Below, one piece after another: positions 15,385 to 64,000 of a stretch of 64,000 nucleotides of DNA. This stretch comes from Patescibacteria group bacterium (GTDB taxonomy: Bacteria > Patescibacteriota > Microgenomatia > UBA1400 > PJMF01). The notes beneath the pieces were generated by a model. The model was not told the origin of the DNA. It was given only the letters and a program-made list of their open reading frames with translations, and ran no database searches. The stretch lies in the NCBI GenBank assembly GCA_016861205.1, contig BOKX01000001.1, forward strand, positions 766,528 through 830,527. Reading direction: 5' to 3'. The position numbers and the translations under genes are program-made. Every line of letters starts with the position of its first letter. The stretch's first letter is position 1.

Positions 15385-15390
15385 ATAGTG

Positions 15391-34553: not shown

Positions 34554-35015
34554 ATGAAAACCTTGCTCAAAATCGCTTTGGTCATGTTCACCATTTTTGG
34601 CATCGCTGATGCCGGCTATCTGACGTACATGAGAGTAAATGGTTTAGTGCCACCGTGCAACCCCAACTTCCAGTGTGAAGATGTCTTAGCCAGCCCCTGG
34701 TCAAGTATTGGCCCCTTCCCACTCTCTGCCCTAGGACTGTTATTTTACTCAACTTTCTTCATTCTAGCCGTGCTCAACTTCGTTGATGTCCAGTCGCTCA
34801 AGCTCGGCTCGTACAATGTCAGAATGACCACTGCGGTAGCGGCAATTGGAACGTTTGGTATGTTGTTTTCAGGATATCTTCTTCTACTCATGGGGGTCAT
34901 TTTGCAAGCCTGGTGTCTCTACTGTCTCATTTCGGCGGCTATTTGCTTCACACTCGGGGGGTTGAGTCTCACCCAATACTTTTTAGCCAAGAAAGTAACG
35001 CCTGATGCAATGTAG
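34554..35015 (+). CDS. vitamin K epoxide reductase (VKOR)-family thiol-disulfide oxidoreductase
   Basis: 4-TM protein with a loop Cys pair (CNPNFQC) and a TM CxxC active site (CLYC). Confidence 0.65.
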   Translation: MKTLLKIALVMFTIFGIADAGYLTYMRVNGLVPPCNPNFQCEDVLASPWSSIGPFPLSALGLLFYSTFFILAVLNFVDVQSLKLGSYNVRMTTAVAAIGTFGMLFSGYLLLLMGVILQAWCLYCLISAAICFTLGGLSLTQYFLAKKVTPDAM

Positions 35016-48512: not shown

Positions 48513-50204
48513 ATGATATTCACTTTGCCTAAAATTTTGAGCGCCAACGCCAAGTGGCTTGAGCAGCAGCAAAACACGATTTTGTCGGCGGCGACCATCA
48601 TCACGGTTTTTAACATCGTTTCTGCCTTGTCCGGTATCATTCGCAATCGTGTTTTTATCACGGTTTTCTACGATACAGCAATCGCTTCAAAAGAAGCTTT
48701 AGACGCCTTGTATGTAGCCTTTCAGGTACCGGACATGTTGTTCCAGTTGGTAGTGTTCGGCGCGATGTCGGCTGCTTTTGTACCTGTATTTATCAGCCAT
48801 CGCCGTCAGGATGAAAAAGTCGCCTTCCACATGACATCCATTGTTATGACCCTGTTATTGGGAGTGTTTGCTCTATTTTCAGCTGTCATCTTTTTCTTAG
48901 CTGAACCAATTACTCACTGGCGAACAGGCCAGCAGTTCACCGCCACCCAAATTGAAATTGTGACGAACTTGACTCGAGTTATGTTGGCTGGCCAGTTTTT
49001 CTTAGCTATCTCTAGTTTCTTTGGCAGCATTTTAAATTCATACCAACGATTTGTGATTCCAGCTCTCGCTCCAGTCCTGTATAATGTCGGCATTTTGGCT
49101 GGCGTGTACTTCTTTGCCCCTACACTGGGTATTTACTCAGCTGGTTTGGGCGTGGTGATTGGGGCAGCCATGCACATGCTGATCCAGCTCCCGTTGGTCC
49201 TTAAGCTCGGTTTCCGCTATCAACCATCATTCGATATTAAGTACCCTGGAGTTAAATCAATTTTGGCTCTGACACCGCCACGCATTTTAGCGGTCAGTGT
49301 TGGAGAAATTCGCGACCTTTTACTCGGTTTTTTCGCCACCTCGATCGGCAACTCCAGTATGTTGATCATGCAGTTAGCACTCAACATTATGACTGCGCCG
49401 ATTCGGTTTTTCGGGGTACCAATTAGTCAAGCTGCCTTGCCATTTTTGTCGGAGGAAGTGGCCAAAAATGATCAAACCAAATTCCGCGATCTGATTGTTC
49501 AATCTCTGCACCAGATTTCCTTTTTCATCTGGCCGGCATCTGTCTTGGTCTTGATTTTGCGCGTCCCAATTGTTCGTTTGCTGTTCGGCGCTGGAAACTT
49601 ACCTTGGACGACCACGGTCACTACGAGTAAAGTAGTCGCACTGATCGCACTCTCGATCGCCGCACAAGGTTTAGTGCAGCTGATCATCCGGGCTTTCTAC
49701 GCGCTTAAAGATACTCGGACGCCTCTGTTGGTCGCTCTGGTTGACATTGTGCTCTATCTGGTAATAGCCGGTTGGACCGTGTTTGGGCTGAACTGGGGCG
49801 TCTATGGTCTAGCTCTGGCAACTAGCTTAACAGCCTGGTTTGAACTGATCGTGATCATGGCCTGCCTGGATCAGAAAGTTCGCTGCTTCAGCACCAAACC
49901 ATTCATAGTGCCGCAGTTGAAAATTCTCGCCGCTAGTTTCTTCATGGCTGTTTTTCTGTATCTGCCATTCCGGATTCTGGACGAACTGGTTTTTGATACT
50001 TCACGCACCATCGAACTGATTGCTCTGACCATTACCACCAGTACCGTCGGCATGCTGGTGTACGTCTACTTCGCAGCTCTATTCGAAATCCGGGAGCTAC
50101 GATTCTTCACTAAAGTTATTACTTCCTTTGGTCCATGGCGAAAATCACTCGAGAAAAGTCCTGAAGTTCTCACCGAAAGCAGTGTGGAAGGTGACACGCT
50201 CTGA
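48513..50204 (+). CDS. murJ: lipid II flippase MurJ (MviN family)
   Basis: 563 aa, 14-TM MOP-superfamily pattern with a conserved N-terminal region. Confidence 0.85.
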   Translation: MIFTLPKILSANAKWLEQQQNTILSAATIITVFNIVSALSGIIRNRVFITVFYDTAIASKEALDALYVAFQVPDMLFQLVVFGAMSAAFVPVFISHRRQDEKVAFHMTSIVMTLLLGVFALFSAVIFFLAEPITHWRTGQQFTATQIEIVTNLTRVMLAGQFFLAISSFFGSILNSYQRFVIPALAPVLYNVGILAGVYFFAPTLGIYSAGLGVVIGAAMHMLIQLPLVLKLGFRYQPSFDIKYPGVKSILALTPPRILAVSVGEIRDLLLGFFATSIGNSSMLIMQLALNIMTAPIRFFGVPISQAALPFLSEEVAKNDQTKFRDLIVQSLHQISFFIWPASVLVLILRVPIVRLLFGAGNLPWTTTVTTSKVVALIALSIAAQGLVQLIIRAFYALKDTRTPLLVALVDIVLYLVIAGWTVFGLNWGVYGLALATSLTAWFELIVIMACLDQKVRCFSTKPFIVPQLKILAASFFMAVFLYLPFRILDELVFDTSRTIELIALTITTSTVGMLVYVYFAALFEIRELRFFTKVITSFGPWRKSLEKSPEVLTESSVEGDTL

Positions 50205-50225: not shown

Positions 50226-50852
50226 GTGAAGAAGAAGACTGCCCAAGTTAACATCAACCTGGCGCCTAAAGATCCGTTTTTTGACACGACTCTGGGGAAG
50301 GTGTTGCGGTGGTCACTGACGGTCGGCCGCTACATCGTGATTTTCACAGAGTTAGTCGTTATTTTTAGTTTTGCCACCCGTTTCACTCTCGATAGACGCG
50401 TCACTGATTTAAACGACTCCATCTTTCAAAAGGAAAGCGTAATCAAGTCGTATGGGGACTTGGAAGATAAAGTTCGACTCACCCAGTTTCAAATCGAGCA
50501 GTACCAACAAGTCGAGCAACTCTCCAATCTTGCTGACATTTTCCCAATCTTGAGCGCCATTACACCCCAAGACGTTCGGCTGGATAATTTAGTTATTAAA
50601 CCAGCCTCGGTTAGTTTGGAAGGCACCACCCTAACTCAAAGTTCTTTTAACACTTTGATCAATAACATTCAACTTTCGGGCAAGTTCTTCAATGTCACCG
50701 TGGATCGAATCGAAAGTGATCAAGAAAAAAATCCGGGAATTCACTTTGTGTTGCATGCTGCAACACAGCCTCCAGAAGTCAAAACCACTGTTCAAAAAAC
50801 CGAAGCCAAAACCAGCGTACTAGATCGAACCCAAGGACTGGAAGGCATTTAA
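50226..50852 (+). CDS. type IV pilus assembly protein PilN-like
   Basis: N-terminal VNINLAPK (INLLP-like motif), single TM, coiled coil. Confidence 0.6.
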   Translation: MKKKTAQVNINLAPKDPFFDTTLGKVLRWSLTVGRYIVIFTELVVIFSFATRFTLDRRVTDLNDSIFQKESVIKSYGDLEDKVRLTQFQIEQYQQVEQLSNLADIFPILSAITPQDVRLDNLVIKPASVSLEGTTLTQSSFNTLINNIQLSGKFFNVTVDRIESDQEKNPGIHFVLHAATQPPEVKTTVQKTEAKTSVLDRTQGLEGI

Positions 50853-50859: not shown

Positions 50860-51480
50860 ATGGCTAATATTCGCACGCAACTATCTACTACCCTCAACCA
50901 GTTTTACCATCAGCCAGTGGCGAGAGTGTCACTGGAGCTGTTCTTGTCACTTGGCGCTGTCATGTTCTTTGCTGTTTTTGCCATCCGCCCCACCTTGCTG
51001 ACCATGTCTGATTTGGTCAAAGAAATCGAGGATAAAGAAAAATTGGACGGGCAGCTCGGTCAAAAAATCGCTGCACTCTACTCAGCCCAAAGCGAGTACT
51101 TAACACTTGAGCCACGGTTGCCACTTTTGAACGAGGCTATTCCAACCGCCCCCCAGCTCATCAGCTCGTTGAAGATAATTGAGAAGTTGGCGAGTGACCG
51201 GCGGCTGGTCATCTCATCACTCAACATCAACTCGATTCCCAACGAAACCTCTATAACCAACCTAACCACCCAAACAAAGCGCCAGGTAGTTTCAGTGACA
51301 GTGACAGTCATTGGTGACTATCCTGTCATTCGCGCTTTTGTGGAAGATCTTCGGCAGTTACGCCGAGTGATGATCATTGAAAGTATTGCTTTTAGTAATA
51401 GCGACAACGTCCGAGGTCAAACTCGAGGCTTGCGTGCCCAGATTCAAATCGGGCTACCATACTATGGAGCCGCCCAATGA
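50860..51480 (+). CDS. type IV pilus assembly protein PilO-like
   Basis: N-terminal TM + coiled coil + alpha/beta domain. Adjacent to pilN. Confidence 0.5.
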   Translation: MANIRTQLSTTLNQFYHQPVARVSLELFLSLGAVMFFAVFAIRPTLLTMSDLVKEIEDKEKLDGQLGQKIAALYSAQSEYLTLEPRLPLLNEAIPTAPQLISSLKIIEKLASDRRLVISSLNINSIPNETSITNLTTQTKRQVVSVTVTVIGDYPVIRAFVEDLRQLRRVMIIESIAFSNSDNVRGQTRGLRAQIQIGLPYYGAAQ

Positions 51481-51914
51481 ACACGTTCCAACGCCAACTA
51501 GCTAGTATTCGCCAACAACAACAGTTGTTGTACATCTTGATCTTCTCGTTCGCGACAATTTTGATTTGGGTCGCCATTGGTTTGTTTAGCTCTCAAAAGA
51601 AAACCGGTATCTCAGCAGAACTCCAAGAACTAGCCAAGCCGCTCAATCCCACCATTAACCGCCAGGTTTTTGACCAGCTCGACCGTGAGCGAACCTTCAC
51701 CGCAAGCGACTTGAGTAACTTTCCTATTTACAAAATCCTGCTCAGTAAAGAAGGCGCTGAACAAGTGGTCACACTCGATGTGAACGAGGCTCCCAGCGCT
51801 CCCGTTATCGTACCTCCCAGCCCGTCACCCACTCCCGTCAGTGTAGCCAGTGAGTCAGCCACCCCGAGTGCATCACCCACTCCCACTGCCACTTCATCTG
51901 GAGCCCAGCCGTAA
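51477..51914 (+). CDS. small membrane-anchored protein with P/S/T-rich tail (PilP-like position)
   Basis: Start overlaps the pilO stop. TM then a P/T-rich C-terminus. Confidence 0.4.
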   Translation: MNTFQRQLASIRQQQQLLYILIFSFATILIWVAIGLFSSQKKTGISAELQELAKPLNPTINRQVFDQLDRERTFTASDLSNFPIYKILLSKEGAEQVVTLDVNEAPSAPVIVPPSPSPTPVSVASESATPSASPTPTATSSGAQP

Positions 51915-51986: not shown

Positions 51987-53600
51987 TTGTTTGCTATGCA
52001 ACCGATACCTGGTAAAAAGAGTCTGCTACGTCGTCAAATCCCCACATTAATCGGTTTGGGTATTCTGGTAGTTGGTTTAGTGGCCGGAATGCTCTTTATC
52101 GGCCAGGGCGCGGGCGTTTTTGCCCCTCGCGCTACGCCGCAAACCACCCCCAAACTCATCAAGATTACAAATGTTAGTGACACTAGCTTTACTGCTTCAT
52201 TTTTAACCGACGAAGCCACCGTTGGCTTTGTGAAGTACGGTACCGAACCTACTCGGCTCAACGCACAAGCTAGCGACGATCGTGATCAACTATCAGGAAC
52301 GGTCGGCAAGTATAGTTTGCACCACATCACTGTTCGTGGTTTGGACCCTGCCACCACCTACTACTTCACACTTGGCACAGCTAGCACAGCCGATTTTGAT
52401 AACAACGGCTCTCCGTTTACTGTTACCACCGCCAAACGAGGTGGAACACCATCGGCAGCCAAAACTAGTTATGGTAGCGTCGTCACCAGTAGTGGTACAC
52501 CGGCTGAAGGTAGTGTTGTCTACGTCACTATTAACGGTGTAGGCGAGTTGTCATCTTTGGTCAAAAACTCTGGAAGTTGGGCTGTGCCACTTTCGAATGC
52601 ACGTACCAGCGACGGGGCTAACTACGCCAAAATCGAGGACACCGATAGTATGGGCTTGATGGTTCAAGGACCAAGCGCTGCTCAAACCAGCCAGTTAACG
52701 GTCACTGTTAAAGACTCACAACCTGTCGCTGCCATTACTCTAGGTCAAAATGGCGCGGCTATGGCAGCCAAAATGACCGACGATTCAGGAACTGGTGGTC
52801 AAAGTAGCGAAACCTCCGACAGTACGACTCAAGCTACTGACTCCGCAACTACCGGCTTGACAGCAACCTCAACCGCCACAGGTTCTGGTGCGACTGGCGG
52901 CTTGAACACATTGCTAAGTCAAAGCGATTTATCAGCTAGTGGCAGTGCCACTACTGCTACAAGTAGTGCTTCACCTTCTGCCGTGGTGAACTTGGAAAGC
53001 ACCAAACCACAGGTGGTTACAACAACCCAACCAGTGATTACTGGTAAAGCTGCTCCGAACGTTCGGGTCAGGATCGAAGTTCATTCAGACAACCAGATCA
53101 ACTACGAACTGGTGGCAGACGCCAACGGTGGCTTCACACTTGACGTAGCCAAACTCTCTGAGCAACTTGAACCAGGCGAGCATACAGTCACCTATGCCTA
53201 CACAGATCCAACCACAGGACAAGAAGTAGTCAAAACCCAAACGTTCACGGTACAAGCGCCCACGAATCAGCTCGCTCAAGCGACGACCACAAAAACGACA
53301 GGCAGTTCAAGCACCAAGAGTAGCTCACCATCGCCGACGCCATTTAGCTCATCAAATCCATTCCCAGTCGGTGGTGCCAGTGGCAGCGCCACACCCAAGC
53401 CATCTCCAAGCAGTAGTCCGGCCGCTAGCGGCTCGTCCCGCGTCGCCTATCCGTCGACAAGTAGCGGCATTCCAGTCTCTGGAACCCTCAGCACCACCAT
53501 CTTCTTAGTGGCCGGTGGCTTAGTCTTGATGCTCGCTGGTACCTGGAGTTTCTGGATGGCTAAACTTTGGACTACAGATGACGGTGATCCAGAAGATTAA
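51987..53600 (+). CDS. secreted fibronectin type III-domain protein with S/T-rich region and C-terminal TM anchor
   Basis: KITNVSDTSFTASF...HHITVRGLDPATTYYFTL is an FN3 signature. C-terminal IFLVAGGLVLMLAG TM followed by an acidic tail. Confidence 0.6.
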   Translation: MFAMQPIPGKKSLLRRQIPTLIGLGILVVGLVAGMLFIGQGAGVFAPRATPQTTPKLIKITNVSDTSFTASFLTDEATVGFVKYGTEPTRLNAQASDDRDQLSGTVGKYSLHHITVRGLDPATTYYFTLGTASTADFDNNGSPFTVTTAKRGGTPSAAKTSYGSVVTSSGTPAEGSVVYVTINGVGELSSLVKNSGSWAVPLSNARTSDGANYAKIEDTDSMGLMVQGPSAAQTSQLTVTVKDSQPVAAITLGQNGAAMAAKMTDDSGTGGQSSETSDSTTQATDSATTGLTATSTATGSGATGGLNTLLSQSDLSASGSATTATSSASPSAVVNLESTKPQVVTTTQPVITGKAAPNVRVRIEVHSDNQINYELVADANGGFTLDVAKLSEQLEPGEHTVTYAYTDPTTGQEVVKTQTFTVQAPTNQLAQATTTKTTGSSSTKSSSPSPTPFSSSNPFPVGGASGSATPKPSPSSSPAASGSSRVAYPSTSSGIPVSGTLSTTIFLVAGGLVLMLAGTWSFWMAKLWTTDDGDPED

Positions 53601-53698: not shown

Positions 53699-55492
53699 AT
53701 GATTGCTTCATCCCCAAAGTTCCGTAAAAAAGCCTCACTCACCCAACTTCCGATCAGTATGGTGGTTGGACTAGTTGTGGTAGCCATCATGGTGGTGGGG
53801 GCCGTAGCCGCTATTTACTTGTCAAATCAATCAACAGAACTTCGCCAGCAAGCCGCTGGTGAGCGAGCCGTGGTTTGTGCTCCCGGGACTTGGTCTTCGT
53901 GTGGTTCAAATGCCACACCCACCTGTCCCACTGGCCAAGCTCGACGTTGTAGCACCAACAATACCTGGGGAAACTGTCAAACACCTCCCGCCGGCACGTG
54001 CGGCGGTAGTGTGCAACGCTGCGGTGTCTGTAACAACAGTGGCGACTGTGCGGCTGGTCTAACTTGCCGGGTTGTTGCTGCAGGATATCGTTGTGTGACC
54101 AGCACTGATACCAACTCAGCCTGTCCAAATGACGGCGGCACTGGCCAGCCTATCCCAAATTCATATGGTTCATGTAGCAATGGCTGTTGTACGGTGACAC
54201 CGGCCGGCTCAGCTGCAGGCTGCTACGTTGTTGGGTACCAATGTCCAGGTGGTGAATTACCTTGTGGTCAAAATGGCAGTACTTCCAATGGCACAATGTG
54301 TAATGCGGCTGGCTACTGTGGCAGTCAGCAAGTCGATCTACGTTGTCCGGGCTACTCAACAGCAGGCTCTTTCCAAACCTCTAGCAAACCCATGAACTGT
54401 GGTAGCACGCCAACGAACCCACCAACGACCCCTTCAACACCTCCAGGTACTGGTGGCGCGCCAACCCCAGTTCCGACCCAACCCCCAACACCAATTAGTT
54501 GTGCTGGCTTGGAGATTCTCGACCCTGTTACCTTACAAAAGTTACCCACCAAACCAACTACAGGTCAGTCTGTTCGATTCCGCTGTATTGGGGCGGCCGG
54601 ATCACAACCTGATTACTACTTCTTTGCCTACACGGATGTTCTCGGTCAGGCTATGAAGCTGATTTACCAAGGTCCCAGTGACCTGACATTCCCCATCACC
54701 GTCCAACCCTACATGGTTGTGCAGTGTAACCCTTGCCGTGGCAGCGAGTGTTCTTCTGGAGAAAGCGTCAATCAAAACTGTACCTTCATCAATCAGGCTC
54801 CACCAAGCCCTACACCTAGTCCCTCACCGACACCAGTTGCAGTTGCTTGCTACAGCTTGACACAGTCAACTGTTGCCACGAATCAGAATGGTACCGTTAC
54901 CTATCGATTTACTTGTGGCGGTGCCCCTGGAAGCAACTACTATTTCTTCGCCTACCAAAGCAGCCCAACGGGACCAATGCAACCATTCGCTCAGGGTCCA
55001 GCGAACACAGCAGATCTGACAGTGGCAACCAACTCATACTTAGTTGTGCAGTGTAACCCTTGCGTCGGTAGTACCTGTTCTAGCAGTGCCTCAGTCAATA
55101 ACAACTGTACCTATCGTCAGGCGGCTATAACCAGTCCAACCCCTGTAGCCTCTGCAGTGTTGCCATCACCAACTCCAGCCATTACCCCTGGACCGCAATG
55201 TTTAGGCATCACTTTGTCGAACACTAATGCACAGGTCGGTGATGTGGTTACTGCTACCTGTACCCAAGTTCCAGGTGCCGCCCGCTACATTAGCCGTGTT
55301 ATGTTACCAAGCGGTCAGATCCGGGATCTAAACATGACTGGTCGAGTATCAGAGCAAGTACAAATCACTAGTGCCGGTACATACGTTTTCCAGTGTCAGA
55401 TTTGTACCGACAACACGACTGCCAGTTGTTTCGCCTACGAACCAACTTCAGTCATATATGAAGACCCAATTGCACCACCAGGAACCAATTAG
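53699..55492 (+). CDS. cysteine-rich secreted mosaic protein (paralog 1)
   Basis: N-terminal leader/TM ...ELRQQAAG, a Cys-dense region, P/T linkers, and three copies of a ~85-aa domain (VRFRC.GAAGS..YYFFAY...VQCNPC.GS.CSS..SVN.NCT). Confidence 0.6.
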   Translation: MIASSPKFRKKASLTQLPISMVVGLVVVAIMVVGAVAAIYLSNQSTELRQQAAGERAVVCAPGTWSSCGSNATPTCPTGQARRCSTNNTWGNCQTPPAGTCGGSVQRCGVCNNSGDCAAGLTCRVVAAGYRCVTSTDTNSACPNDGGTGQPIPNSYGSCSNGCCTVTPAGSAAGCYVVGYQCPGGELPCGQNGSTSNGTMCNAAGYCGSQQVDLRCPGYSTAGSFQTSSKPMNCGSTPTNPPTTPSTPPGTGGAPTPVPTQPPTPISCAGLEILDPVTLQKLPTKPTTGQSVRFRCIGAAGSQPDYYFFAYTDVLGQAMKLIYQGPSDLTFPITVQPYMVVQCNPCRGSECSSGESVNQNCTFINQAPPSPTPSPSPTPVAVACYSLTQSTVATNQNGTVTYRFTCGGAPGSNYYFFAYQSSPTGPMQPFAQGPANTADLTVATNSYLVVQCNPCVGSTCSSSASVNNNCTYRQAAITSPTPVASAVLPSPTPAITPGPQCLGITLSNTNAQVGDVVTATCTQVPGAARYISRVMLPSGQIRDLNMTGRVSEQVQITSAGTYVFQCQICTDNTTASCFAYEPTSVIYEDPIAPPGTN

Positions 55493-55517
55493 CAGCCAGC
55501 ACTCAGCGGAATAACGT

Positions 55518-56468
55518 ATGACGACCACACCTATCAAACAACCAATCCGAGCCACAAAGCTGTTTGGCTTTGATCGCAAAGCAGTCTTAACTGTGTTGGC
55601 GTTGGTGGTGTTCGTAATTGCCGGCCTCAGTGGTGTCTTAATTGCCCAACGTCAGCGTCAGATCAGTGGCCCAGTTGCTCCCACGGCTCCAGGTTCACGC
55701 CCACAGGCAGCGTTTCAACAGTTACATACTTGCACTGTGGCACTCACCGTTCCCAACCCCATCCCGACGCCCACACCGTTTATTAGTCCGTCACCAAGCT
55801 TAGTTCCGACACCTACTCCATTTGTTAGCCCATCACCTAGCTTAGTCCCAACTCCCATCCCGACACCCACTCCCACCACCTACTCATGTAACAGTTCGTG
55901 TACCACGAACGCACAGTGTCAGACTGCGAACGCCGCTTACATTTGTTCCAGTGGTAAATGCCGCCTCAACGGCAATGTCGGCAGCACTACCTGTACCTAT
56001 AAATGTAACAGTAGTTGCGTCAGTGACGCGGAGTGTCAAACTGTCAATCCAGACTACATCTGTTCCAGTGGCAAATGTCGTATGAAGTACAATCCCAATG
56101 CCACCAACTGTAGTTATAGTTGCCCAGTCATCAATGCAAACCCCAAACCACCAGTTACCACCTGTGCGCCGGCCGCCACAGAAACGGGCACCATCACTTG
56201 GTACTGGACACCGATCAGTGGGCACAACAGCACCACCCAGTATCAAATCCAGGTGCTGAACAGCAACAATCAGGTCGTCGGCGAAGATAAGGGCTGCAAA
56301 CCCGGTGACGAGTACTACAACTGTTACCAAGGCCACTGTAGCTACACCAGCTATCACTTGCCTGGTACATATAAGGCCCGAATAAAAGCCTGTACCAGCA
56401 GCTGTCCGTCAACAACCACGCAGGGATTCAGAACCACAGTCAGCAAGACGATTGGTGTCTGCCAATAA
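55518..56468 (+). CDS. cysteine-rich secreted mosaic protein (paralog 2)
   Basis: Leader ...PQAAFQQ, PTPTP linkers, two repeats CNSSCx3AxCQTxNxxYICSSGKCR. Confidence 0.6.
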   Translation: MTTTPIKQPIRATKLFGFDRKAVLTVLALVVFVIAGLSGVLIAQRQRQISGPVAPTAPGSRPQAAFQQLHTCTVALTVPNPIPTPTPFISPSPSLVPTPTPFVSPSPSLVPTPIPTPTPTTYSCNSSCTTNAQCQTANAAYICSSGKCRLNGNVGSTTCTYKCNSSCVSDAECQTVNPDYICSSGKCRMKYNPNATNCSYSCPVINANPKPPVTTCAPAATETGTITWYWTPISGHNSTTQYQIQVLNSNNQVVGEDKGCKPGDEYYNCYQGHCSYTSYHLPGTYKARIKACTSSCPSTTTQGFRTTVSKTIGVCQ

Positions 56469-56493
56469 ATCCCAAAAATGAGCCAAAAGTTCC

Positions 56494-56526
56494 AGAGCCA
56501 GCGTCAGCTGGCTCTGTTAGTTCTAG
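56494..56526 (+). terminator. candidate intrinsic terminator/attenuator between array genes
   Basis: AGAGCCAGC-GTCA-GCTGGCTCT then GTTAGTTCTAG. Confidence 0.4.
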
Positions 56527-56687
56527 ACTGGCGATGAGCGCACTTGGCTTCGGCTGAGCCTCTCCCGATGCTTTACCGAATAAATCGACTATTGACGAGT
56601 GGTCAACAAAATCGCTATCCTGATGATTAGGCTTGTCACGAGTGGTTCTGTCGTTGGAACACCGCAGACAGCTCTACAAAACGAATC

Positions 56688-58760
56688 ATGATTAACGCTA
56701 CCCCTTCACTGCCAACTGCTTCATCACAACCTCCAAAAGACCCGACTTTTGGCGCTAAGCCGGCTCCAATGGCCATGAAACCAAAAGCCAAAACCAACTG
56801 GAGAATGATTCTGGGACTCGGTGTTTTGTTACTGGTGATCGTCGGTGGCGCCGCTGGGTTCTACTTGACCCAAATGGGTGGACTGGATGTGCGACAACAG
56901 GCAGCAGTAACCAATCCATGTAGTGATATTGCGGCAACGTGTTTAGTTGGTTCAGCTAGCTGTCCTGCCGGCCAGAATAAAGTAGGTACTTGTTCAGATC
57001 GAGGCGAACAGGGCTCTTGCTGTAAACAGCCGGGCGGCACTGTAGCCTGTGCTGACTCAGCTGCTACTTGCAATGTTGGCGCGACAAGTTGTCCAAGTGG
57101 TCAATTAAGAACCGGTTCATGTTCAGATCGTGGTGACCAGGGATCATGCTGCAAACCAGCTAATGTGTCACAGCCATGTTCAGATTCTACTGCCACTTGT
57201 ACTCTTGGTGCCTGTGGAAGCGGCCAAGTTAGTGTAGGATCATGTTCTGATCGAGGTGAACAAGGCTCTTGCTGCAAAACGGCACCATCATGTTATGACT
57301 TGAACCAAGGTTGTATCCGAATTACTTCTGCAGAGTGCAGCAATGGTGTTGGTGCAGGAAAGTACACAGACCTTGCTCAATGCCAAGCAGCACGTTGTAC
57401 TCCACAACAGTTGGTTGCAATCAATTGTCCAACCGGCGAGGAACCTTATTGTAATAATGGGACGCCTGCTTGCCGATTGAGCGCCTCAACCAATCCAAAT
57501 CCAGTTGCTCTACAAGGCTGTAACCAAGCGTGCAATAGTAGTGCATATTGTACCTGTCCCGCTGGTTGCGCAGTTCAAACTCAAATTTCTATTGGTCAAA
57601 ACTGTGGCGGCAATACTACACCTACTTTAACTGCCTGTAATCAAACCTGTAACAGTCAAGCGGGTTGCAACTGTCCTTCTGGCTGTGCTCAAAGCTTCGC
57701 TCAAAATGGAGGCACCTGTGGTGGTAACACCACTCCAACTCTGACTAGCTGTACCCAAACCTGTACTGCTCAGGCCGGTTGCAACTGTCCATCTGGCTGT
57801 TCACGAACCTTTGCTAACAATGGCCAAACTTGTGGCAGTGCTGGCACCGGCGGCACCATCACCTACTGTCCGAACTCGCCTACCACCCCAGCTCGCCGAT
57901 ATGTTAAGTTCACCTGTCCGAACGGCTGTCAGTTAACCACCGAACAGGGTGTAACTGCCTGGCGCTGCTATGAGAGACGCCAAGACTCCACCACTCCTCT
58001 GACCCTGAACGGTGAGTGTGGTCAGGTCGACGTTTTATCAGGCGATACTGATGCAACCTATTGTGGCTACACTGAGTACACCTGTGATCAGGCTCGCTGC
58101 CAGCCTCAGCAGACCCCGCCTCCAAGTACCCCTCCAGCTCAGGCCAGTTGTGTCCGCTTAGAGTTGCTAGATGAAACCGGTAGTACTGTCCTGAATCAAA
58201 CTCCAGCCAGTGGCAATGTTCGCTTCCGCTGTGTGGGTGCCCCAGGTAGCAACTACTACTTCTTTACCGCCCGTAGCAACCAGACTGGTCCACTTAACCT
58301 AATCTACCAGGGTGACAGTAGCATGACGTTCCCAATTGCTATTACCGATTACTTGCACGTTCAATGTAACCCATGTATCGGCACATCATGTGCGAGTGCC
58401 GAGAACGTTAACACCAGTTGTAACTTCGAGTACACCCGTCAGATTCCACCCGGACCACAATGTCTGGCTCTGTGGATGGCCAGTACCGAGAATCCAACTG
58501 TGTCTCTGACCAACCCACACGTCGGTGACAGTATCTTGCTCGGTTGTGGCCAAGTTCAGGGCGCAGCTCGCTACGTCTTCCGAGTGACCGAGCCAGATGG
58601 TAACGTCGTGAACCTGCAGCCGCTCGATGTGACTGCTGCGCCACGCACCTCACAGGCTTACACTATTACTAAGCAAGGCCGACACTATGCGCAATGTCAG
58701 ATCTGTACCGGCCAAGCAGACAGCACCTGTTTCGCGTACGAAACCTTACCTAGCAACTAA
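56688..58760 (+). CDS. cysteine-rich secreted mosaic protein (paralog 3)
   Basis: Leader ...DVRQQAAV. 3x ~42-aa repeat (C.D...TC.VG..SCP.GQ...GSCSDRGEQGSCCK), 3x ~38-aa repeat (CNQTCNSQAGCNCPSGC...CGGNTTPTLT), then YYFF/VQCNPC domain copies. Confidence 0.6.
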   Translation: MINATPSLPTASSQPPKDPTFGAKPAPMAMKPKAKTNWRMILGLGVLLLVIVGGAAGFYLTQMGGLDVRQQAAVTNPCSDIAATCLVGSASCPAGQNKVGTCSDRGEQGSCCKQPGGTVACADSAATCNVGATSCPSGQLRTGSCSDRGDQGSCCKPANVSQPCSDSTATCTLGACGSGQVSVGSCSDRGEQGSCCKTAPSCYDLNQGCIRITSAECSNGVGAGKYTDLAQCQAARCTPQQLVAINCPTGEEPYCNNGTPACRLSASTNPNPVALQGCNQACNSSAYCTCPAGCAVQTQISIGQNCGGNTTPTLTACNQTCNSQAGCNCPSGCAQSFAQNGGTCGGNTTPTLTSCTQTCTAQAGCNCPSGCSRTFANNGQTCGSAGTGGTITYCPNSPTTPARRYVKFTCPNGCQLTTEQGVTAWRCYERRQDSTTPLTLNGECGQVDVLSGDTDATYCGYTEYTCDQARCQPQQTPPPSTPPAQASCVRLELLDETGSTVLNQTPASGNVRFRCVGAPGSNYYFFTARSNQTGPLNLIYQGDSSMTFPIAITDYLHVQCNPCIGTSCASAENVNTSCNFEYTRQIPPGPQCLALWMASTENPTVSLTNPHVGDSILLGCGQVQGAARYVFRVTEPDGNVVNLQPLDVTAAPRTSQAYTITKQGRHYAQCQICTGQADSTCFAYETLPSN

Positions 58761-58774
58761 TATAAACACACTGT

Positions 58775-59941
58775 ATGACCGACAACTTTAAACCAACCAG
58801 CTTCATCAAACAGCCACCGGCGGGAGTACCAGCTCCCAATACTCCGGCTGTTGGTTTAAACCCGGCTCCAGATGCTGGTGTACCAATGAGCACAGGTCCA
58901 GCCCCTAAATCGCCTAAGAAAATCTTTGGTATGGAAGCCAAGAGTCTGGCAGCCGTACTTGGCTTGACCTTGTTCTTCGTAGTTGCCATGGGCGGGGTTG
59001 CAATTTCACTGCGCCAACGAGTAGCTCAGGGGCCAGCCGCCCCCACCGCTCCTCAATCCCGACCTCAGGCAGATGTCGGTCAGATCGGCAGCTGTTCATT
59101 GTTCTTCGACGCCGAGCCAGTCGCCTCACCATACTGTAGTAGTATCAGTATTGTCGGCAACGCTGATCCAAACACAGCGACTAGCTTAACGTTCAGTTGT
59201 GCCGGCGCTCCTGGCAGTGACTACTACTTCTTCTCGTATCGAACAAGCCCAACTGGAGCTCTGCAGCTGCTGAGTTCTGGAACTGAGGCCACTTCATCTG
59301 CCATTAGTATGGCAGGTGTGAACTACTTGCACGTTCAATGTAACCCACACATTGGAGCTAACGGCTCGAGTGCCAGCAGTGTTAACGAGAACTGTAACTA
59401 TGAATTCACCCGCGGTGCCACCCCGACACCAAGTCCAAGTGTCACGCCTACTCCTACACCCACACCAACGGTGAGTCCGAGTGTGACACCCACACCGACC
59501 CCAACCCCCAGCAGTACACCTGGTGTAACTCCGTCACCCACCTACAGTTGCAACAGTAGCTGTTCGACCAATGCTCAATGTGCCACAGCCAACAGCAACT
59601 TCATCTGTTCCAATGGCTCGTGCCGGCTGAGTTCGAACCCAAGCAGCACCACTTGTAGTACGGTCGGCTGTAACGAGGTCTGTTCGTCCAACTCAGACTG
59701 TTCGAACACGTCACACATCTGTAGTGGAGGCCGCTGCCGCTTAGACAGTAATCCAGACAGTAGTACGTGTACACCTCCATCTACTACCACGACTACCACT
59801 GTGGCTCAACAAACTGGCACCCCATCTCAGCCAACCTTGCCAGCCGAGCTGCCACAAACTGGGGCTGAGGACTTTGGAACTTGGCTCAAGGCTGGTGTCG
59901 TCATCCTCTTGGGAGGCGCGGCTCTGCTACTGTTCCTATAA
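58775..59941 (+). CDS. cysteine-rich surface protein with C-terminal LPXTG-like sorting signal (paralog 4)
   Basis: Leader ...PQSRPQA, a YYFF/VQCNPH domain, PTPTP linkers, 2x CNSSC...ICS.G.CRL repeats. C-terminal LPQTG + hydrophobic segment. Confidence 0.6.
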   Translation: MTDNFKPTSFIKQPPAGVPAPNTPAVGLNPAPDAGVPMSTGPAPKSPKKIFGMEAKSLAAVLGLTLFFVVAMGGVAISLRQRVAQGPAAPTAPQSRPQADVGQIGSCSLFFDAEPVASPYCSSISIVGNADPNTATSLTFSCAGAPGSDYYFFSYRTSPTGALQLLSSGTEATSSAISMAGVNYLHVQCNPHIGANGSSASSVNENCNYEFTRGATPTPSPSVTPTPTPTPTVSPSVTPTPTPTPSSTPGVTPSPTYSCNSSCSTNAQCATANSNFICSNGSCRLSSNPSSTTCSTVGCNEVCSSNSDCSNTSHICSGGRCRLDSNPDSSTCTPPSTTTTTTVAQQTGTPSQPTLPAELPQTGAEDFGTWLKAGVVILLGGAALLLFL

Positions 59942-59956
59942 ACTAAAGGACCTCAG

Positions 59957-60886
59957 ATGCCCAAATCAACCCCGCTGACAAATCGATACAGACGGCGACG
60001 TATCTCGGGCTTGTTAACTGGTGGCCTGATCACGCTGCTAGTGTTGGTCGGCGGTGCAATTGGCTATTCGCAGGTTTTCAGGAACCAAGACTTAGCTTCT
60101 CAAGCTAGTGTGGCTGACGGAAATAGTCGAGCTTGCACAGCAGGCACTGTCGGGACAGAGTATGAGGGCACTCAAGGCAGCAACGGCTGCCAAAGCAATG
60201 AAGTTCCCGTGTACCGTTGTGTCAGGGACACTCATCGATCGGGCAACACCACGACATATACATACCACTGGCAACGAATCCGCTGTTCATATCGATCTGG
60301 CGCCACTACCTGTAACGGAACAACTGGCCGAGCGCAGGGTTGCCCTTGTGCTGATGATAGTCAGTGCAGTACACATAACTGTGCAGTGACGAGCTCCAGT
60401 GGTCCCAAAACGTGTGCCCCCTTTGACCCAGGTCCATTAACTCGCCCTGGTCAGCCTGGGCCTGGTGGCCAACCAGCTCCTGCTCAACCGACTCCAACAA
60501 GTGTTTCACAGCCGAATCCTGGCACACCGGGGCAACCTACTAACCCAACACAACCTGTCGTTCCAACGTGTACCGTAGTACTCAGTAAAAAGGATGCTAA
60601 GGGCAAAATGCAGCCTGTGCCAACTGCGCAACTCAAAAAAGATGATGTTGTGTACCTGAGCTGCCCCACCACAGGTCAGCCCACAACTACCTTCTGGGGT
60701 TTCTATCGGATAAATGCTGCTGGGACCGGTTACGACTTTGTGGCAGGTGGCGATACCGTTGGCAACCCACCATCAACAGTTATTCCCATTGTTCTGAAAA
60801 CTGGTGATCACTTTGAGTGCGCCCCCATGACCTTAGTCAATAACATTTCGAGTTATCATGCCAAATGTACGGCAGATATTAGATAA
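59957..60886 (+). CDS. cysteine-rich secreted protein (paralog 5)
   Basis: Leader RRRRISGLLTGGLITLLVLVGGAIGYSQVFRNQDLASQAS, a P/G/Q linker, and a C-terminal ~110-aa domain ending GDHFECAP. Confidence 0.55.
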   Translation: MPKSTPLTNRYRRRRISGLLTGGLITLLVLVGGAIGYSQVFRNQDLASQASVADGNSRACTAGTVGTEYEGTQGSNGCQSNEVPVYRCVRDTHRSGNTTTYTYHWQRIRCSYRSGATTCNGTTGRAQGCPCADDSQCSTHNCAVTSSSGPKTCAPFDPGPLTRPGQPGPGGQPAPAQPTPTSVSQPNPGTPGQPTNPTQPVVPTCTVVLSKKDAKGKMQPVPTAQLKKDDVVYLSCPTTGQPTTTFWGFYRINAAGTGYDFVAGGDTVGNPPSTVIPIVLKTGDHFECAPMTLVNNISSYHAKCTADIR

Positions 60887-60895
60887 GGATGGACC

Positions 60896-61933
60896 ATGTT
60901 CAGCACCAAACCACTCCCTAATAAACGAGCCCAACGTCGTCGATTGTCAGCAGTCATCACTGGTGGACTGATCATGACGCTGATGGTGGTCGGTGGCGTG
61001 ATTGGTTTCTCAGGTTTATTCCAGTCTCAAGATCTTGCTTCACAGGCAGCAGGTAGTATGTCGTGTGGTGGCCGCAGTGCTGGCTCTACTTGGAGAGGGG
61101 CAACCGGAACTGAGAGCTGTTCAAGCAATCAGCAACCCGCTTTTACCTGTGTGGAAGTCACTATCACAGGCAGTAAAAATCAAAAGACTAAGGTCTTGCA
61201 AGCTTTTAAAACTGGCTGTGTCACAACTGCTCCGTTAGTGACCGGCGCTCAGACCCAACAGAAGTGTGCCGATGCGCAGTCAACCTGTAACATTGGCAGT
61301 ACCACTTGTGGGAGCGCTTTTACCAAAACGGGTTCCTGCAGTGATCGACAAGACCAAGGAGTCTGCTGCAAAAAAACCGTCACTGCTAACCCCTTGACCT
61401 CATTGGCTAATCTGACCAAACCAGCCCCAGCCGCCAACACTCAGCCAGCCCAAACCGCACCGGCAACCAATCCAAGCCAAGGGTCAGCACCACAGGCAAA
61501 TCAGGGTACTGGTGGTCAAGCTCCAGCTGCACCTCTAGCCCCACAGCCTGGTGTTGAGCCAACCTGTGAAGTGACGTTGAACACCAAGACTATGACCGAT
61601 CAGCAGATCGCTGCCCAGGGCAAGCCGTTGACTGATGATGTTTTGGCCAAGTACATCACGCCGATTACTAGTTACAGCTTCGGCAATCAAGTGGCCTTCC
61701 ACTGTAATGTCACCAGCGGTGGACCAGTGGTAAACGTCTGGTGGGCCCTGTATCGAGTTGAGAACAACACGTACGTCGCCAAACTGAGTGGCAGTAAAAA
61801 TGCCAACAGCAGTTTGCTCGATCAGAGCTTGGTAAACTTGCAACCAGGTGACCACTTCGAGTGTGTGCCGACCTACATTGGCCCAAATGGTGTGGAGACC
61901 GAGGGCAAGAAGTGCAAACAAGTTTACTGGTAA
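60896..61933 (+). CDS. cysteine-rich secreted protein (paralog 6)
   Basis: Leader paralogous to the 59957 gene, one SDRQDQGVCCK module, a P/A/Q linker, and a C-terminal domain with GDHFECVP. Confidence 0.55.
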   Translation: MFSTKPLPNKRAQRRRLSAVITGGLIMTLMVVGGVIGFSGLFQSQDLASQAAGSMSCGGRSAGSTWRGATGTESCSSNQQPAFTCVEVTITGSKNQKTKVLQAFKTGCVTTAPLVTGAQTQQKCADAQSTCNIGSTTCGSAFTKTGSCSDRQDQGVCCKKTVTANPLTSLANLTKPAPAANTQPAQTAPATNPSQGSAPQANQGTGGQAPAAPLAPQPGVEPTCEVTLNTKTMTDQQIAAQGKPLTDDVLAKYITPITSYSFGNQVAFHCNVTSGGPVVNVWWALYRVENNTYVAKLSGSKNANSSLLDQSLVNLQPGDHFECVPTYIGPNGVETEGKKCKQVYW

Positions 61934-61992: not shown

Positions 61993-62066
61993 GCGCCTAT
62001 AGCTCAATTGGTTAGAGCGTCAAGCTTATACCTTGATGGTTCTAGGTTCGAGTCCTAGTGGGCGCA
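61993..62066 (+). tRNA. tRNA-Ile with anticodon UAU (AUA-decoding)
   Basis: GCGCCTA-TA-GCTC-AATTGGTTA-GAGC-G-TCAAG-CTTATAC-CTTGA-TGGTT-CTAGG-TTCGAGT-CCTAG-TGGGCGC-A. The anticodon loop reads U33-UAU-A37. Confidence 0.75.
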
Positions 62067-62075
62067 CTTGGATTT

Positions 62076-63077
62076 TTAGTTATTTCCTGCGTTGAGGTTT
62101 TTAAAAATCCCAGCAAACATATTTCTAACCGAGATTGGCAACCGCTCGTCACTGGCAAACTGCGTGGTAATCCGCAACAACTCGACTGCCGGCAACTCCT
62201 GCAACCCGTTTGTCCAAGCCTCAACCGCGGTCAAGTCCTCGGCCAAACTGAGCACTTCCGCTAACTTCATCAAATATAAAGAATCATCAACCCAGTCAGT
62301 GACCACTTCCAAACTGTGTACCACGTTGGGAGTGGCTGTCACCAATGGAGCTGGGTGGCAGAACTCGCCGATCTTGGTAATTGCTTCTGCCATGGGACCG
62401 CGAAAAGCACCTTGATCACTCAGTTTTCCAAATGCATCGGCATCGAGATCGGTAAAGTTTCTCAAAAATTTCTCAATTTGTGCTAAGGTACCAGAGCCAA
62501 TTTGGGTACTGAGCGTATACCAATTGGTATCGGGATCAACGCCACACAGTCTGAGAATCACCTCGTGTACTGCCGGTGAACTAGTCAAGAGTGGCCAGTC
62601 ATATGCTTTATAAATCCGAATGTCGTCGGCAAAATGCATACCCTGCAACCTTCCCTGTAACTTGGTGCGAGCCGCCCGCCATCCATACTGCCTCAGCAAA
62701 CCATAATCGTAGGTACCAGCCAAAAATTGGGCCACCGCCCGAGTGTTCACCTGACCGCTAAAATCAAGTGGCTTCATCCCTCCTTGAACGGCTTCTCTGC
62801 GAAATCCAGCAGCCGCAAAGGCTTGCGTGAGTTGTTCGTAGGCCTGCGGCGTTGTAACCAGGATGTGTTTCAAGTTGCCGAACGTCCAGGCTTCGCCAGT
62901 TGTCGCCAGCGCCAACAAACATGCCTCCGCCGTGGGTGGCAGTTTTTTCGATAGTGATCGAACATACTCGGTCTCGCTTTTGAGCGTCCGTGATCGATCA
63001 TGATCAATGGTGAGTGTTTGGGCTTCGGGTGTCAACATAGCAGGCTCAACAACCTGTAATATACGCCTATTTGTCAA
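62076..63077 (-). CDS. hypothetical protein (333 aa)
   Basis: Long ORF with no recognisable motif. Confidence 0.5.
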   Translation of the reverse strand: MTNRRILQVVEPAMLTPEAQTLTIDHDRSRTLKSETEYVRSLSKKLPPTAEACLLALATTGEAWTFGNLKHILVTTPQAYEQLTQAFAAAGFRREAVQGGMKPLDFSGQVNTRAVAQFLAGTYDYGLLRQYGWRAARTKLQGRLQGMHFADDIRIYKAYDWPLLTSSPAVHEVILRLCGVDPDTNWYTLSTQIGSGTLAQIEKFLRNFTDLDADAFGKLSDQGAFRGPMAEAITKIGEFCHPAPLVTATPNVVHSLEVVTDWVDDSLYLMKLAEVLSLAEDLTAVEAWTNGLQELPAVELLRITTQFASDERLPISVRNMFAGIFKNLNAGNN

Positions 63078-63098
63078 GCTATCTAGAGGTGAACAAGT

Positions 63099-64000
63099 CT
63101 AGTCCCAAATATGCAAGTCGAGTAAATCAATAATGGGACCGAGAACGGCAATTGGCTGCTTGACTGTTCGGTCAGCCAATACTCGAGTAAAATGTTCGTT
63201 CAATCGTTGCTTGTACGACTGTTGATAGTAAGGACTCAGGTTTGGGAACAGGTACTCAATTTCAGCATCGGTGATCGGCACAAAGACGCCACAGTGTTTA
63301 CTCAAGTCGAAATCACTCCAACCTTCACCTGGTTGGAGCTGCGGGAATCTGCCAAACAATGACTCAAACAGCGAGACTCCTAAACTATAGGCATCTCCCC
63401 ACTTGCTATAGGTTTCGGCTCTTGGTGCCGTATTAAAGTACTTCTCAGGCAACAGGTAATACGCTGTACCAACCCAGTTATTACTATCAGGGACCGGAAA
63501 CAAGGCCTCATTCGGATTTTCGCCACCAAAAAGTGTGAAATTAAAATCATAAATCCGCACATGGCACGGGTTCATAGCTAAAAAGTTGTCTGGCTTTACA
63601 TCATTGTGACTATCAACGTAATGATAAAAGTGGATTAAGCTACGCACTGCATTTACCCAGATTTTTGCCCACTCACCAAGATTTTCCTGACGAAGTGGCT
63701 CACTGCCCATGACATACTCACCGGTTGAACTGGTCAATGTGTAACTTTCGAGCGACTGCCCTTCTAAATATGACAGGATAATAAAACCATCGTCACTGAC
63801 TCCATATAAGTTGGGTGTAAAAACTTCATTTTCAGGCAGGGCCAAATACACCATCAGTTCACGCAGTAAAAACATGTCGACCCAAGCTTTGTGCTGAGCA
63901 GCATTGATCTCTTTGATAAGGCTTGGGATCCATTGGTCAAGCTCGTTTCTGACATAGGCGGGGGTCAGCTTGGCCAAGCCGCCGAACAAAGCGTTTAGAT
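63099..64000 (-). CDS. eukaryotic-like protein kinase domain protein (5'-truncated by window end)
   Basis: HNDVKPDNFL (HxDxKPxN catalytic loop), DFNFT (DFG-like), GTAYYLLPE (APE-like). The frame stays open upstream to the window edge; the track's M at 63989 is a TTG. Confidence 0.6.
   Translation of the reverse strand, partial: LNALFGGLAKLTPAYVRNELDQWIPSLIKEINAAQHKAWVDMFLLRELMVYLALPENEVFTPNLYGVSDDGFIILSYLEGQSLESYTLTSSTGEYVMGSEPLRQENLGEWAKIWVNAVRSLIHFYHYVDSHNDVKPDNFLAMNPCHVRIYDFNFTLFGGENPNEALFPVPDSNNWVGTAYYLLPEKYFNTAPRAETYSKWGDAYSLGVSLFESLFGRFPQLQPGEGWSDFDLSKHCGVFVPITDAEIEYLFPNLSPYYQQSYKQRLNEHFTRVLADRTVKQPIAVLGPIIDLLDLHIWD

Follow-up and report, generated by a model that had tools for sequence, protein, structure and literature searches.

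We have identified a conserved N-terminal leader in an array of six genes (A1 to A6) on a 64,000-nucleotide stretch of contig BOKX01000001.1 from a Patescibacteria group bacterium, referred to here as the window. The leader, so far uncatalogued, looks like an N-terminal module for export and sorting that is specific to its lineage and heads a large family of mosaic, cysteine-rich surface proteins in Patescibacteria. Going by alignment, A1, A3, A5 and A6 are carriers of one homologous leader of ~45 residues (type 1), and A2 and A4 carry a second form (type 2). Our favored reading, to which we assign a probability of roughly 45%, is that the leader acts in sorting or processing as a sequence-specific determinant, with a dedicated partner to handle it. 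The original prediction, made from the letters of the window, held that all six array proteins and an upstream protein with a fibronectin type III-like domain (the FN3 protein) begin alike. This observation is partly confirmed, since the six array proteins fall into two related leader types and the FN3 protein stands apart, and the interpretation attached to it is likewise partly supported. The array genes, their leaders and the FN3 protein (amino acids abbreviated aa) are located as follows.

53699-55492, plus strand: array gene A1
53699..53857, plus strand: type-1 leader of A1, aa 1-53, with KFRKK, a helix core at aa 21-39 and ELRQQAA at aa 47-53; 64.5 bits
55518-56468, plus strand: array gene A2
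55518..55712, plus strand: type-2 leader of A2, aa 1-65, with a basic segment, a helix core at aa 24-42, IAQRQRQ, the spacer GPVAPTAPG and the box SRPQAA
56688-58760, plus strand: array gene A3
56688..56906, plus strand: type-1 leader of A3, aa 1-73, with MINATP, a Pro/Ser/Thr-rich cytoplasmic tail, KPKAK, a helix core at aa 40-58 and DVRQQAA at aa 67-73; 80.3 bits
58775-59941, plus strand: array gene A4
58775..59074, plus strand: type-2 leader of A4, aa 1-100, with a long Pro-rich cytoplasmic tail, SPKK, a helix core at aa 59-77, ISLRQR, the spacer GPAAPTAPQ and the box SRPQAD
59957-60886, plus strand: array gene A5
59957..60109, plus strand: type-1 leader of A5, aa 1-51, with RYRRRR, a helix core at aa 18-36 and the variant box DLASQAS; 66.5 bits
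60896-61933, plus strand: array gene A6
60896..61051, plus strand: type-1 leader of A6, aa 1-52, with KRAQRRR, a helix core at aa 20-38 and the variant box DLASQAA; 69.8 bits
51987-53600, plus strand: FN3/Pur_ac_phosph_N protein, with membrane segments at both ends
51987..52136, plus strand: leader of the FN3 protein, aa 1-50, with GKKSLLRR, a helix core at aa 21-39 and then GVFAPRAT; no Q/A box; -1.8 bits

The seven open reading frames (ORFs) were all found, as were the motif strings that had been quoted for the array proteins (ELRQQAAG in A1, SRPQAAFQQ in A2, DVRQQAAV in A3, QSRPQADV in A4, DLASQASV in A5 and DLASQAAG in A6). What all seven proteins have in common is a K/R-rich n-region and a single hydrophobic helix at the N-terminus (best 19-residue Kyte-Doolittle means of 2.0-3.0). 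A profile of 48 match columns was built from A1, A3, A5, A6 and six outside homologues. These four window proteins score 64-80 bits against it, a range that is partly circular since all four belong to the model, and A2, A4 and the FN3 protein score about -2 bits.

From its N-terminal end, the type-1 leader comprises a K-P-K-K-K basic cluster, a 21-residue membrane helix, F/Y-Y-L-[ST]-Q and an external box, Q-[DE]-φ-R-Q-Q-A-[SA]. Its consensus reads K-P-K-K-K-x3-K-x-I-x-G15-…-L19-x-L21-…-G25-x-x-x-G/A29-[FY]-[YF]-L32-[ST]-Q-x-x-Q37-[DE]38-[VLI]-R40-Q41-Q42-A43-[SA]44. Conservation was measured on 153 aligned leaders, drawn from the best ~150 of at least 500 profile matches and from loci fetched through the motif, and the percentages are inflated for that reason. 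Within the helix, G15 is kept in 89%, L19 in 79%, L21 in 74%, G25 in 99%, G/A29 in 98% and L32 in 96%, and I13 is also conserved. The box is tighter still, with D/E38 at 100%, R40 at 99%, Q41 at 95%, Q42 at 93%, A43 at 100% and S/A44 at 92%; past A43-S/A44, conservation drops sharply. In the K/R cluster at positions 3-7 and 11, Lys is present in 54-84%, depending on the position. Position 27 is G, A, I, V or S (44, 33, 8, 7 and 4%), position 29 is G or A (69 and 29%), and positions 30-31 are aromatic. The spacing GL..L.V..GG..G(F/Y) that the original prediction had read from the helix holds for type 1, given G15, G25, G/A29 and the aromatic pair. The continuous hydrophobic stretch spans positions 12-32 (21 residues), and the box is located 11 residues beyond the helix. 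Helix conservation shows no clean 100° periodicity, with its maximum at 180°, so that our claim is limited to the G25-xxx-G/A29 motif itself.

The leader begins anywhere from residue 1 to about residue 220 in different carriers. About 45% of them have an N-terminal M-I-N-A-[TSV]-P tag (MINA in 65 of 152) followed by a Pro/Ser/Thr/Ala-rich tail of 0-220 aa. The start of A3 is of this type (MINATPSLP…, 56688-56705), and an AlphaFold model of A3 has a helix at residues 38-62. A4-type proteins have a different N-terminal tag, (Q/E)-P-x-A-x-Y-x-K.

The type-2 form is common to A2, A4 and orthologues in nine other loci. It consists of K/R residues, a helix ending in G-V-L-I-A-Q-R-Q, a P-V-A-P-T-A-P spacer and S-R-P-x-A-[AD], with a Cys ~6-10 residues further on. 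Alignment of the type-1 and type-2 profiles with hhalign gave a probability of 91.5% over 30 columns, which take in the basic cluster, the helix and the first Q, as against 2.8% and 0.5% for type 1 with two control helices of neighboring genes. By these profile comparisons, type 2 is a sister form of type 1, with the same n-region and helix register, a Pro/Ala insert and an S-R-P-x-A box. The leader of the FN3 protein gave 44% against type 1 and 5% against type 2. It lacks the Q/A box that had been attributed to it, and its orthologues conserve another string after the helix, GVF(A/S)PRATPQTTPK. Its profile and alignment scores indicate a separate, orthologue-specific leader that has generic features in common with the array leaders and is not demonstrably related to them. 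At the C-terminus of the FN3 protein (53460-53600) and of its orthologues, (G/S)-[ILV]-P-V-S-G is followed by a hydrophobic stretch containing W-S-[FY]-[WY] and then by an acidic tail, perhaps a further C-terminal sorting signal on a protein that would be embedded in the membrane at both ends.

The leader is far more widespread than the window genes. With the 48-column profile, HMMER was run exhaustively against 1.84 billion representatives (clusters at 50% identity), and at least 500 clusters matched at E ≤ 1e-3, of which 91 reached E ≤ 1e-10. Word-indexed protein searches gave two matches for a 52-aa leader profile and none for a profile of the box with the 20 residues after it. No Pfam or NCBIfam model matches the leader in the window proteins or in 93 family members, and neither the motif strings nor a description of the leader was found in the papers searched, among them papers on the candidate phyla radiation (CPR) and on type IV secretion systems (T4SS), which also make no mention of MacB or LPXTG partners. 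All named genome loci of leader carriers are from Patescibacteria, and the carriers appear to belong to the Microgenomates/Pacebacteria group (Paceibacterota being the NCBI synonym of the whole phylum).

Seven homologues of A3 were found through whole-protein similarity and are therefore independent of the leader. All seven keep the box (ETRQQAA, DTRQQAA, DLRQQAD, DNRQQAT, DVRQQAS, EIRQLAS and DIRQQAA), with R, the first Q and A each present in 7/7. An eighth, P0009, has an ordinary signal peptide instead, ending NQVSA|A. The pattern [DE][ILVMT]R.[QRKS]A was counted 21 times in 281 non-redundant genes taken from the window and the fetched loci, and 20 of these cases stand directly behind a membrane helix, an enrichment that is overstated because the loci were chosen by motif. 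Looser leaders (L011, L013, L023 and L025, the numbers denoting fetched loci) combine a short n-region and a Pro-containing helix that lacks G-xxx-G with boxes of the kind Q-N-Q-D-V-R-Q-R-A-S, and some of them head dockerin-like proteins. The box is thus in wider use than the full 45-residue module.

Selection acts on this leader at the peptide level. Across 14 distinct loci, the box shows free synonymous variation, Arg being encoded by five different codons and Ala by all four, and there is no DNA repeat at the leaders of the window. These two results argue against a nucleic-acid element, and on the same grounds gene conversion and a recombination cassette are rejected for the leaders. Across loci, identity to A3 is 45-58% over the final 40 residues of the leader and 25-42% for the bodies. 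A5 and A6 are 35% identical overall, with identities densest in the leader.

The bodies carried by the leader are mosaic, cysteine-rich and extracytoplasmic. In A1-A6, Cys makes up 4-9% of residues, and no Pfam or NCBIfam match was obtained at E ≤ 0.1 except for a near-threshold LPXTG-anchor match at the A4 C-terminus. The median carrier body is ~400 residues long, and the median Cys content is 8.4%. Common modules join 107 of 144 bodies by single-linkage BLAST, and ~50 bodies end in an x-Q-C-x-I-C domain, as do A1 and A3. Pfam assigned few domains in 93 members: DUF7107 three times, DUF11 twice, and DUF5648, dockerin and PKD once each. A poor AlphaFold model of A3 from an eight-sequence alignment (mean predicted local distance difference test score, pLDDT, of 51) contains β-sandwich domains, with confident β-rich regions at ~390-470 and 600-690; Foldseek returned weak tandem Ig/FN3-like matches (query-normalized TM-scores ~0.1). 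Array body modules also match at the DNA level (60-78% identity), pointing to mosaic module shuffling in the cargo. Segments 'VQCNPC' and 'GAPGSxYYFF' recur in A1 (twice), A3 and A4 (54710-54754, 55037-55081 and 58350-58394; 54908-54948, 58224-58264 and 59192-59232), and A3 contains an internal 114-nt tandem duplication (57602-57829). Two further features bear on these bodies.

59849..59941, plus strand: LPQTG-type C-terminal sorting signal of A4, LPQTGAEDFGTWLKAG plus a hydrophobic end and no basic tail; TIGR01167 match at aa 358-386, 15.6 bits against a cut-off of 15.9
34554-35015: VKOR-family protein (3.8e-22)

The A4-type C-terminal signal (A4; L002, L004 and L007-L010) reads L-P-(A/E)-E-L-P-x-T-G-P-E-D-W-L-N-W-L-K-A-G-L…L-L-L-L and includes a conserved P-E-D-W-x-x-W extension. 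Unlike classical sortase substrates, A4 and all its orthologues lack a basic tail and end in LLLL. About 24 of 143 type-1 carriers have a similar end, L-P-x-[TSA]-G-P-E-D-W-L-N-W-L-K plus a hydrophobic tail. A search of the window and the related loci revealed no sortase gene. The VKOR-family protein is the likely oxidant for disulfides of the exported Cys-rich array.

The genes next to the leader genes are also conserved. A query with four leaders yielded 8 genome loci and 13 metagenome loci, in which a recurrent order was seen: one or more type-1 genes, an A4-type gene (type-2 leader and LPXTG-like end), sometimes a gene for a 169-aa protein, a HlyD/YknX-type adaptor (membrane fusion protein, MFP), an ATP-binding cassette (ABC) ATPase, a MacB_PCD/FtsX permease and a 120-aa membrane protein. 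The opposite strand of this block encodes a membrane ATPase of 778 aa (DUF87/HerA central domain plus TrwB_AAD_bind; HerA/VirB4-like). The full order is present in L002, L004, L007, L008, L009, L015, L016, L018 and L021, and L010 has it as far as the adaptor and the ABC ATPase. In L006, which comes from a near-identical strain, MFP-ABC-MacB lies ~3.5 kb past A6, placing the module just beyond the end of this window. Counting the canonical loci with enough flank, the module is found no more than 10 kb away in 10 of 11. The MacB orthologues are 53-83% identical, so the arrangement has been kept over real divergence. Upstream of the array, the following genes form a conserved block that ends with the FN3 gene.

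48513-50204, plus strand: MurJ
50226-50852, plus strand: PilN (Pfam 1e-8)
50860-51480, plus strand: PilO (Pfam 4.9e-7)
51477-51914, plus strand: 145-aa membrane protein

This MurJ-PilN-PilO-145aa-FN3 block stands ahead of the leader genes not only in the window but also in L002, L004, L012 and L015. PilN and PilO are absent upstream in L007, L009 and L010, which have the cluster.

Under the favored reading of the leader as a determinant with its own partner, export would begin in the established way. The basic cluster and the long hydrophobic helix would direct insertion through Sec, the signal recognition particle (SRP) and YidC (20788-21573 in the window), leaving the N-terminus inside and the body outside, where the Cys-rich body would fold with disulfides, a VKOR gene being at hand. 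Just outside the membrane, the invariant box, with an information content comparable to that of LPXTG, would serve as the sorting or processing determinant, and a cut at the invariant Ala, or beside it, would most probably release the precursor. Docking of the precursor to a membrane partner would fall to the conserved small-residue face of the helix. By position, the best candidate for this partner is the MFP-ABC-MacB module; MacB-type (type VII) ABC transporters act on substrates at the outer face of the membrane. The ~24 of 143 carriers with an LPxTG-type end argue for an N-terminus that is freed in some way. A conserved cytoplasmic tag would be odd on a discarded signal peptide, and together with the residue-level conservation of the helix it argues that the helix does more than Sec targeting. 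That residue-by-residue conservation, which extends into the helix, also supports the earlier view of a family-specific signal distinct from a generic Sec signal peptide.

Several observations weigh against this interpretation. The dedicated peptidase that the original prediction suggested is not encoded in the window or in about 20 related loci as judged by phmmer and Pfam, the conserved neighbor being the MacB-type ABC transporter instead. With Staphylococcus aureus SrtA, Bacillus subtilis SipS and Escherichia coli GlpG as phmmer queries, the best E value over all ORFs of the window and the loci was 0.47, and FtsH was the only protease in a Pfam search of ~40 window ORFs. No MacB cluster occurs within 10 kb in the looser-variant loci L011, L013, L023 and L025, and the synteny, which was seen in related genomes, may in part reflect shared ancestry. 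The boxes of A5 and A6 have Ala in place of the near-invariant Arg, and AlphaFold gave the A3 box low confidence and did not resolve it. The conservation figures owe part of their height to sequences being ranked by the profile or fetched through the motif. Finally, a site (site 1) that obeys the rule for signal peptidase I (SPI) is present inside the hydrophobic stretch, at G25-x-x-x-G/A29|F30.

The most serious competitor, which we nevertheless regard as unlikely, is an uncleaved type II signal anchor that would keep the protein in the membrane permanently. Its small-xxx-small helix face would pack with itself, PilN, PilO or MacB, its Q-rich box would be a conserved stalk or docking element, and its MINA tag would contact a cytoplasmic partner. 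The expected topology features are present, namely a basic N-terminal flank (an inside basic cluster) and a helix of ~20 residues within a 21-residue hydrophobic segment. An anchor would also account for the residue-level conservation of the helix and for a cytoplasmic tag in ~45% of members with its long tail, which would be pointless on a discarded signal peptide; moreover, the neighbors PilN and PilO are bitopic. However, ~17% of carriers have an LPxTG-type signal and a hydrophobic end and would hence be anchored at both ends. Conservation stops abruptly after A43-S/A44, as it does at processing sites, and P0009 and L010 (11128-12735) each have a homologous body headed by a cleavable AxA signal peptide.

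An ordinary Sec signal peptide is a slightly less probable account again. It would have a K-rich n-region, a 13-residue h-region (12-24), a c-region G-G-A-A-G and an SPI cut at 29|30, so that the mature protein would start with the conserved box F-Y-L-S-Q-Q-x-Q-D-φ-R-Q-Q-A, which might serve as a handle for docking to the wall or to a partner. SPI requires small uncharged residues at -3 and -1, with the cut 3-7 residues past the h-region. Positions 27 and 29 obey this rule, G25 (99%) would be the helix breaker at -5, and all four type-1 leaders of the window fit (AAG|F, AIG|Y, VIG|F and VAA|I). Ordinary cleavage inside the helix is thus possible, with the box as a conserved mature N-terminus, and carriers with a C-terminal LPXTG-type signal do need N-terminal release. 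On the other hand, the h-regions of signal peptides are normally without sequence conservation, whereas here I13, G15, L19 and L21 are conserved at the residue level; the hydrophobic stretch runs on through F-Y-L to 21 residues, the length of a membrane span; and an invariant box is left unexplained. Variants of the L025 and L023 type have no small-residue site before the box and still keep the box, which favors the box as the determinant.

The original prediction had named a standard AxA cleavage that explains the motif fully as a refutation. An AxA site at the box does not explain the leader, and a cut at site 1 would leave the box unexplained. At the box (site 2, R40-Q41-Q42-A43|S/A44), Ala is at -1 in 100%, but Q is at -3 in 95% and R at -4 in 99%, 11 residues past the helix, and these features do not fit SPI; the edge of conservation there is sharp, as is typical of processing sites. 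Canonical AxA signal peptides do occur in the same lineage (NQVSA|A in P0009, QLVSA|A in L010 and PVQA|T in L002), even on a homologous body. Only part of what defines a Sec/SPI signal peptide is seen in the leader: the n-region is positive (a K/R cluster in all seven window proteins), and in place of a short, unconserved h-region of ~7-15 residues there are 21 conserved residues. Other classes of signal were not recognized. No lipobox (L-[AS]-[GA]-C) was found, the profile having no Cys in positions 1-46 and the first Cys lying at least 3 residues after the box. The Tat motif [ST]-R-R-x-F-L-K is likewise absent; RRR is found only in A5, A6 and P0007, where I/L-S follows instead of F-L-K, and the family consensus is K-P-K-K-K, with Lys at 68-84%. 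Models for YSIRK, KxYKxGKxW and SipW-cognate signals (NCBIfam/TIGRFAM) gave no match in the window proteins (E ≤ 0.1) or in 93 members (E ≤ 1e-3).

It is very improbable that the leader has no special function and is a remnant of recent tandem duplication whose N-terminus happened to evolve more slowly: the window leaders do form three paralogue pairs (A1/A3, A2/A4 and A5/A6) and the bodies share modules, but such a remnant is already contradicted by spread, residue conservation and codon data, the leader being kept across hundreds of clusters less than 50% identical to each other with synonymous sites saturated, heading different body architectures and showing no DNA-level repeat. Weakest of all, and close to refuted, is a divergent type IV pilin-like N-terminal helix on subunits that the neighboring PilN/PilO platform would handle: PilN-PilO does come directly before these genes in the window, L002, L004, L012 and L015, and the 13-residue spacing from helix start to invariant Gly and the Q/D/R-rich continuation loosely recall pilin α1 (FTLIE...G14...P22-x-Y-Q-D-Y..R), but L007, L009 and L010 have the cluster without PilN/PilO upstream, cytoplasmic tails reach 220 residues as against short prepilin leaders, position 11 (-1) is K, Q or R (71, 14 and 8%) and not Gly, position 16 (+5) is G, V, A or L and not Glu, and no ORF of the window or the loci has a G-[F/M]-T-L-I-E-like motif or the broader G[FILMV][TS][LIVM][ILVM]E.

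Of the known systems, the leader is closest in concept, by analogy, to YSIRK-type signals and, mirrored, to the C-terminal signals LPXTG, PEP-CTERM and GlyGly-CTERM. Like the Sec/SPI signal peptides of monoderms, it is N-terminal and has a basic n-region, a hydrophobic segment and an Ala-ending site on exported extracytoplasmic proteins; it differs in the conserved 21-residue helix, in an Ala located 11 residues past that helix (Q at -3, R at -4) and in an n-region that follows a tail of up to 220 residues with its tag. YSIRK-G/S signal peptides are also a lineage-restricted motif subclass on surface proteins, many of which have a C-terminal LPXTG, and the YSIRK motif is thought to direct where or how a protein is sorted and not whether it is exported (PMC12671168). 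However, that motif sits at the n/h boundary with a normal AxA cut, whereas the motif described here lies outside the membrane after the helix, and the two have no sequence similarity. LPXTG/sortase, PEP-CTERM/exosortase and GlyGly-CTERM/rhombosortase likewise combine a short, near-invariant motif and an adjacent helix on many mosaic surface proteins of one lineage with linkage to a processing system. The present leader is N-terminal with the opposite topology, and the system linked to it is a MacB-type ABC transporter, no cognate transpeptidase or protease having been found.

Transporters of the LolCDE/MacB type resemble the neighborhood in having a MacB_PCD/FtsX permease, an ABC ATPase and a HlyD/YknX-type adaptor, here encoded beside the leader genes. 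LolCDE extracts N-terminally anchored lipoproteins; the analogy is purely positional, and the substrates here would be anchored by a peptide helix, not by lipid. The variable lipoproteins of Mycoplasma are similar tandem paralogues with a conserved leader and fast, modular bodies in a reduced-genome, host-dependent bacterium, but the array lacks a lipobox, its leaders have neither DNA-level identity nor recombination repeats, and phase-variation machinery is not in evidence. In Peregrinibacteria, another CPR phylum, clusters of large, Cys-rich, predicted extracellular proteins were proposed to function in attachment and vary between strains (PMC4736985); those proteins have ordinary predicted signal peptides, and no conserved leader or box was described for them.

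CPR bacteria (Patescibacteria) are ultrasmall and for the most part live attached to other cells, and hardly any of their surface proteins carry an annotation. The 45-residue leader, present in at least 500 clusters, is a search handle for the hypervariable, Cys-rich surface repertoire of one large CPR lineage, and the proteins bearing it are likely host-contact molecules. It ties this repertoire to an LPXTG partner, a MacB-type ABC transporter, a VirB4-like ATPase and the PilN/PilO neighborhood, and would account for the 'membrane-anchored hypothetical' calls of standard predictors. Should the box prove to be a genuine processing or sorting signal, the known C-terminal sorting pathways would be joined by a motif-based one at the N-terminus. 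The position of the mature N-terminus can be answered from existing metaproteomes.

A broader proposal, which we consider doubtful and more so than the Sec alternative, can be built on these features. The Q-[DE]-φ-R-Q-Q-A box and the small-residue helix would be the N-terminal counterpart of LPXTG and the signal of a dedicated sorting pathway of the Microgenomates group. MFP-ABC-MacB, possibly with the 120-aa and 145-aa membrane proteins, would extract or release the helix-anchored precursors and pass hypervariable, Cys-rich adhesins and the LPXTG partner to the surface beside PilN/PilO and the VirB4-like apparatus. A survey of T4SS loci in Patescibacteria found no adhesins and did not mention MacB or LPXTG partners (PMC12102498). 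If the proposal is true, the array proteins would supply the host-contact adhesins reported there as missing.

Other features of the window and the loci are minor. The 220-bp gap between A2 and A3 (56469-56687) contains a terminator-like hairpin with a 10-bp stem (56493-56516) and a promoter-like site (56592-56621), so the array is probably transcribed as two or more units. Between the array and the MacB cluster are a Ser/Thr protein kinase-like gene (Pkinase 6.9e-13; window 62076-63989, minus strand; L006 8800-10836) and, in the same intervals (window 62076-63989; L006 8800-10836), a gene for a 333-aa protein without a family match; in L006, another kinase gene follows MacB. The 120-aa membrane protein ends in …Y-x-R-Y-x-Y-C-x-Q-V-V-x-D-Y-E, and in L002 there is a weak T4SS_pilin match between MacB and the 120-aa gene. 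An ORF at 5020-5658 (minus strand) encodes a single-pass protein with no Pfam match and a start that is loosely leader-like (…GLLVIGFVMVGAAYWYRSKATVAPSP), scoring 4 bits against the leader profile. The tRNA genes noted are these.

61993-62067: tRNA-Ile, anticodon TAT, directly after A6
15390-15459 and 16232-16306: two tRNA-Met genes

The G+C content of the window is ~49%. GC skew of the plus strand is negative in 32 of 32 two-kb bins (1-64000; cumulative -2.22), with genes on both strands, and resembles the one-strand G/C disparity reported for complete genomes of the Microgenomates-group order UBA1400 (PMC7143001).

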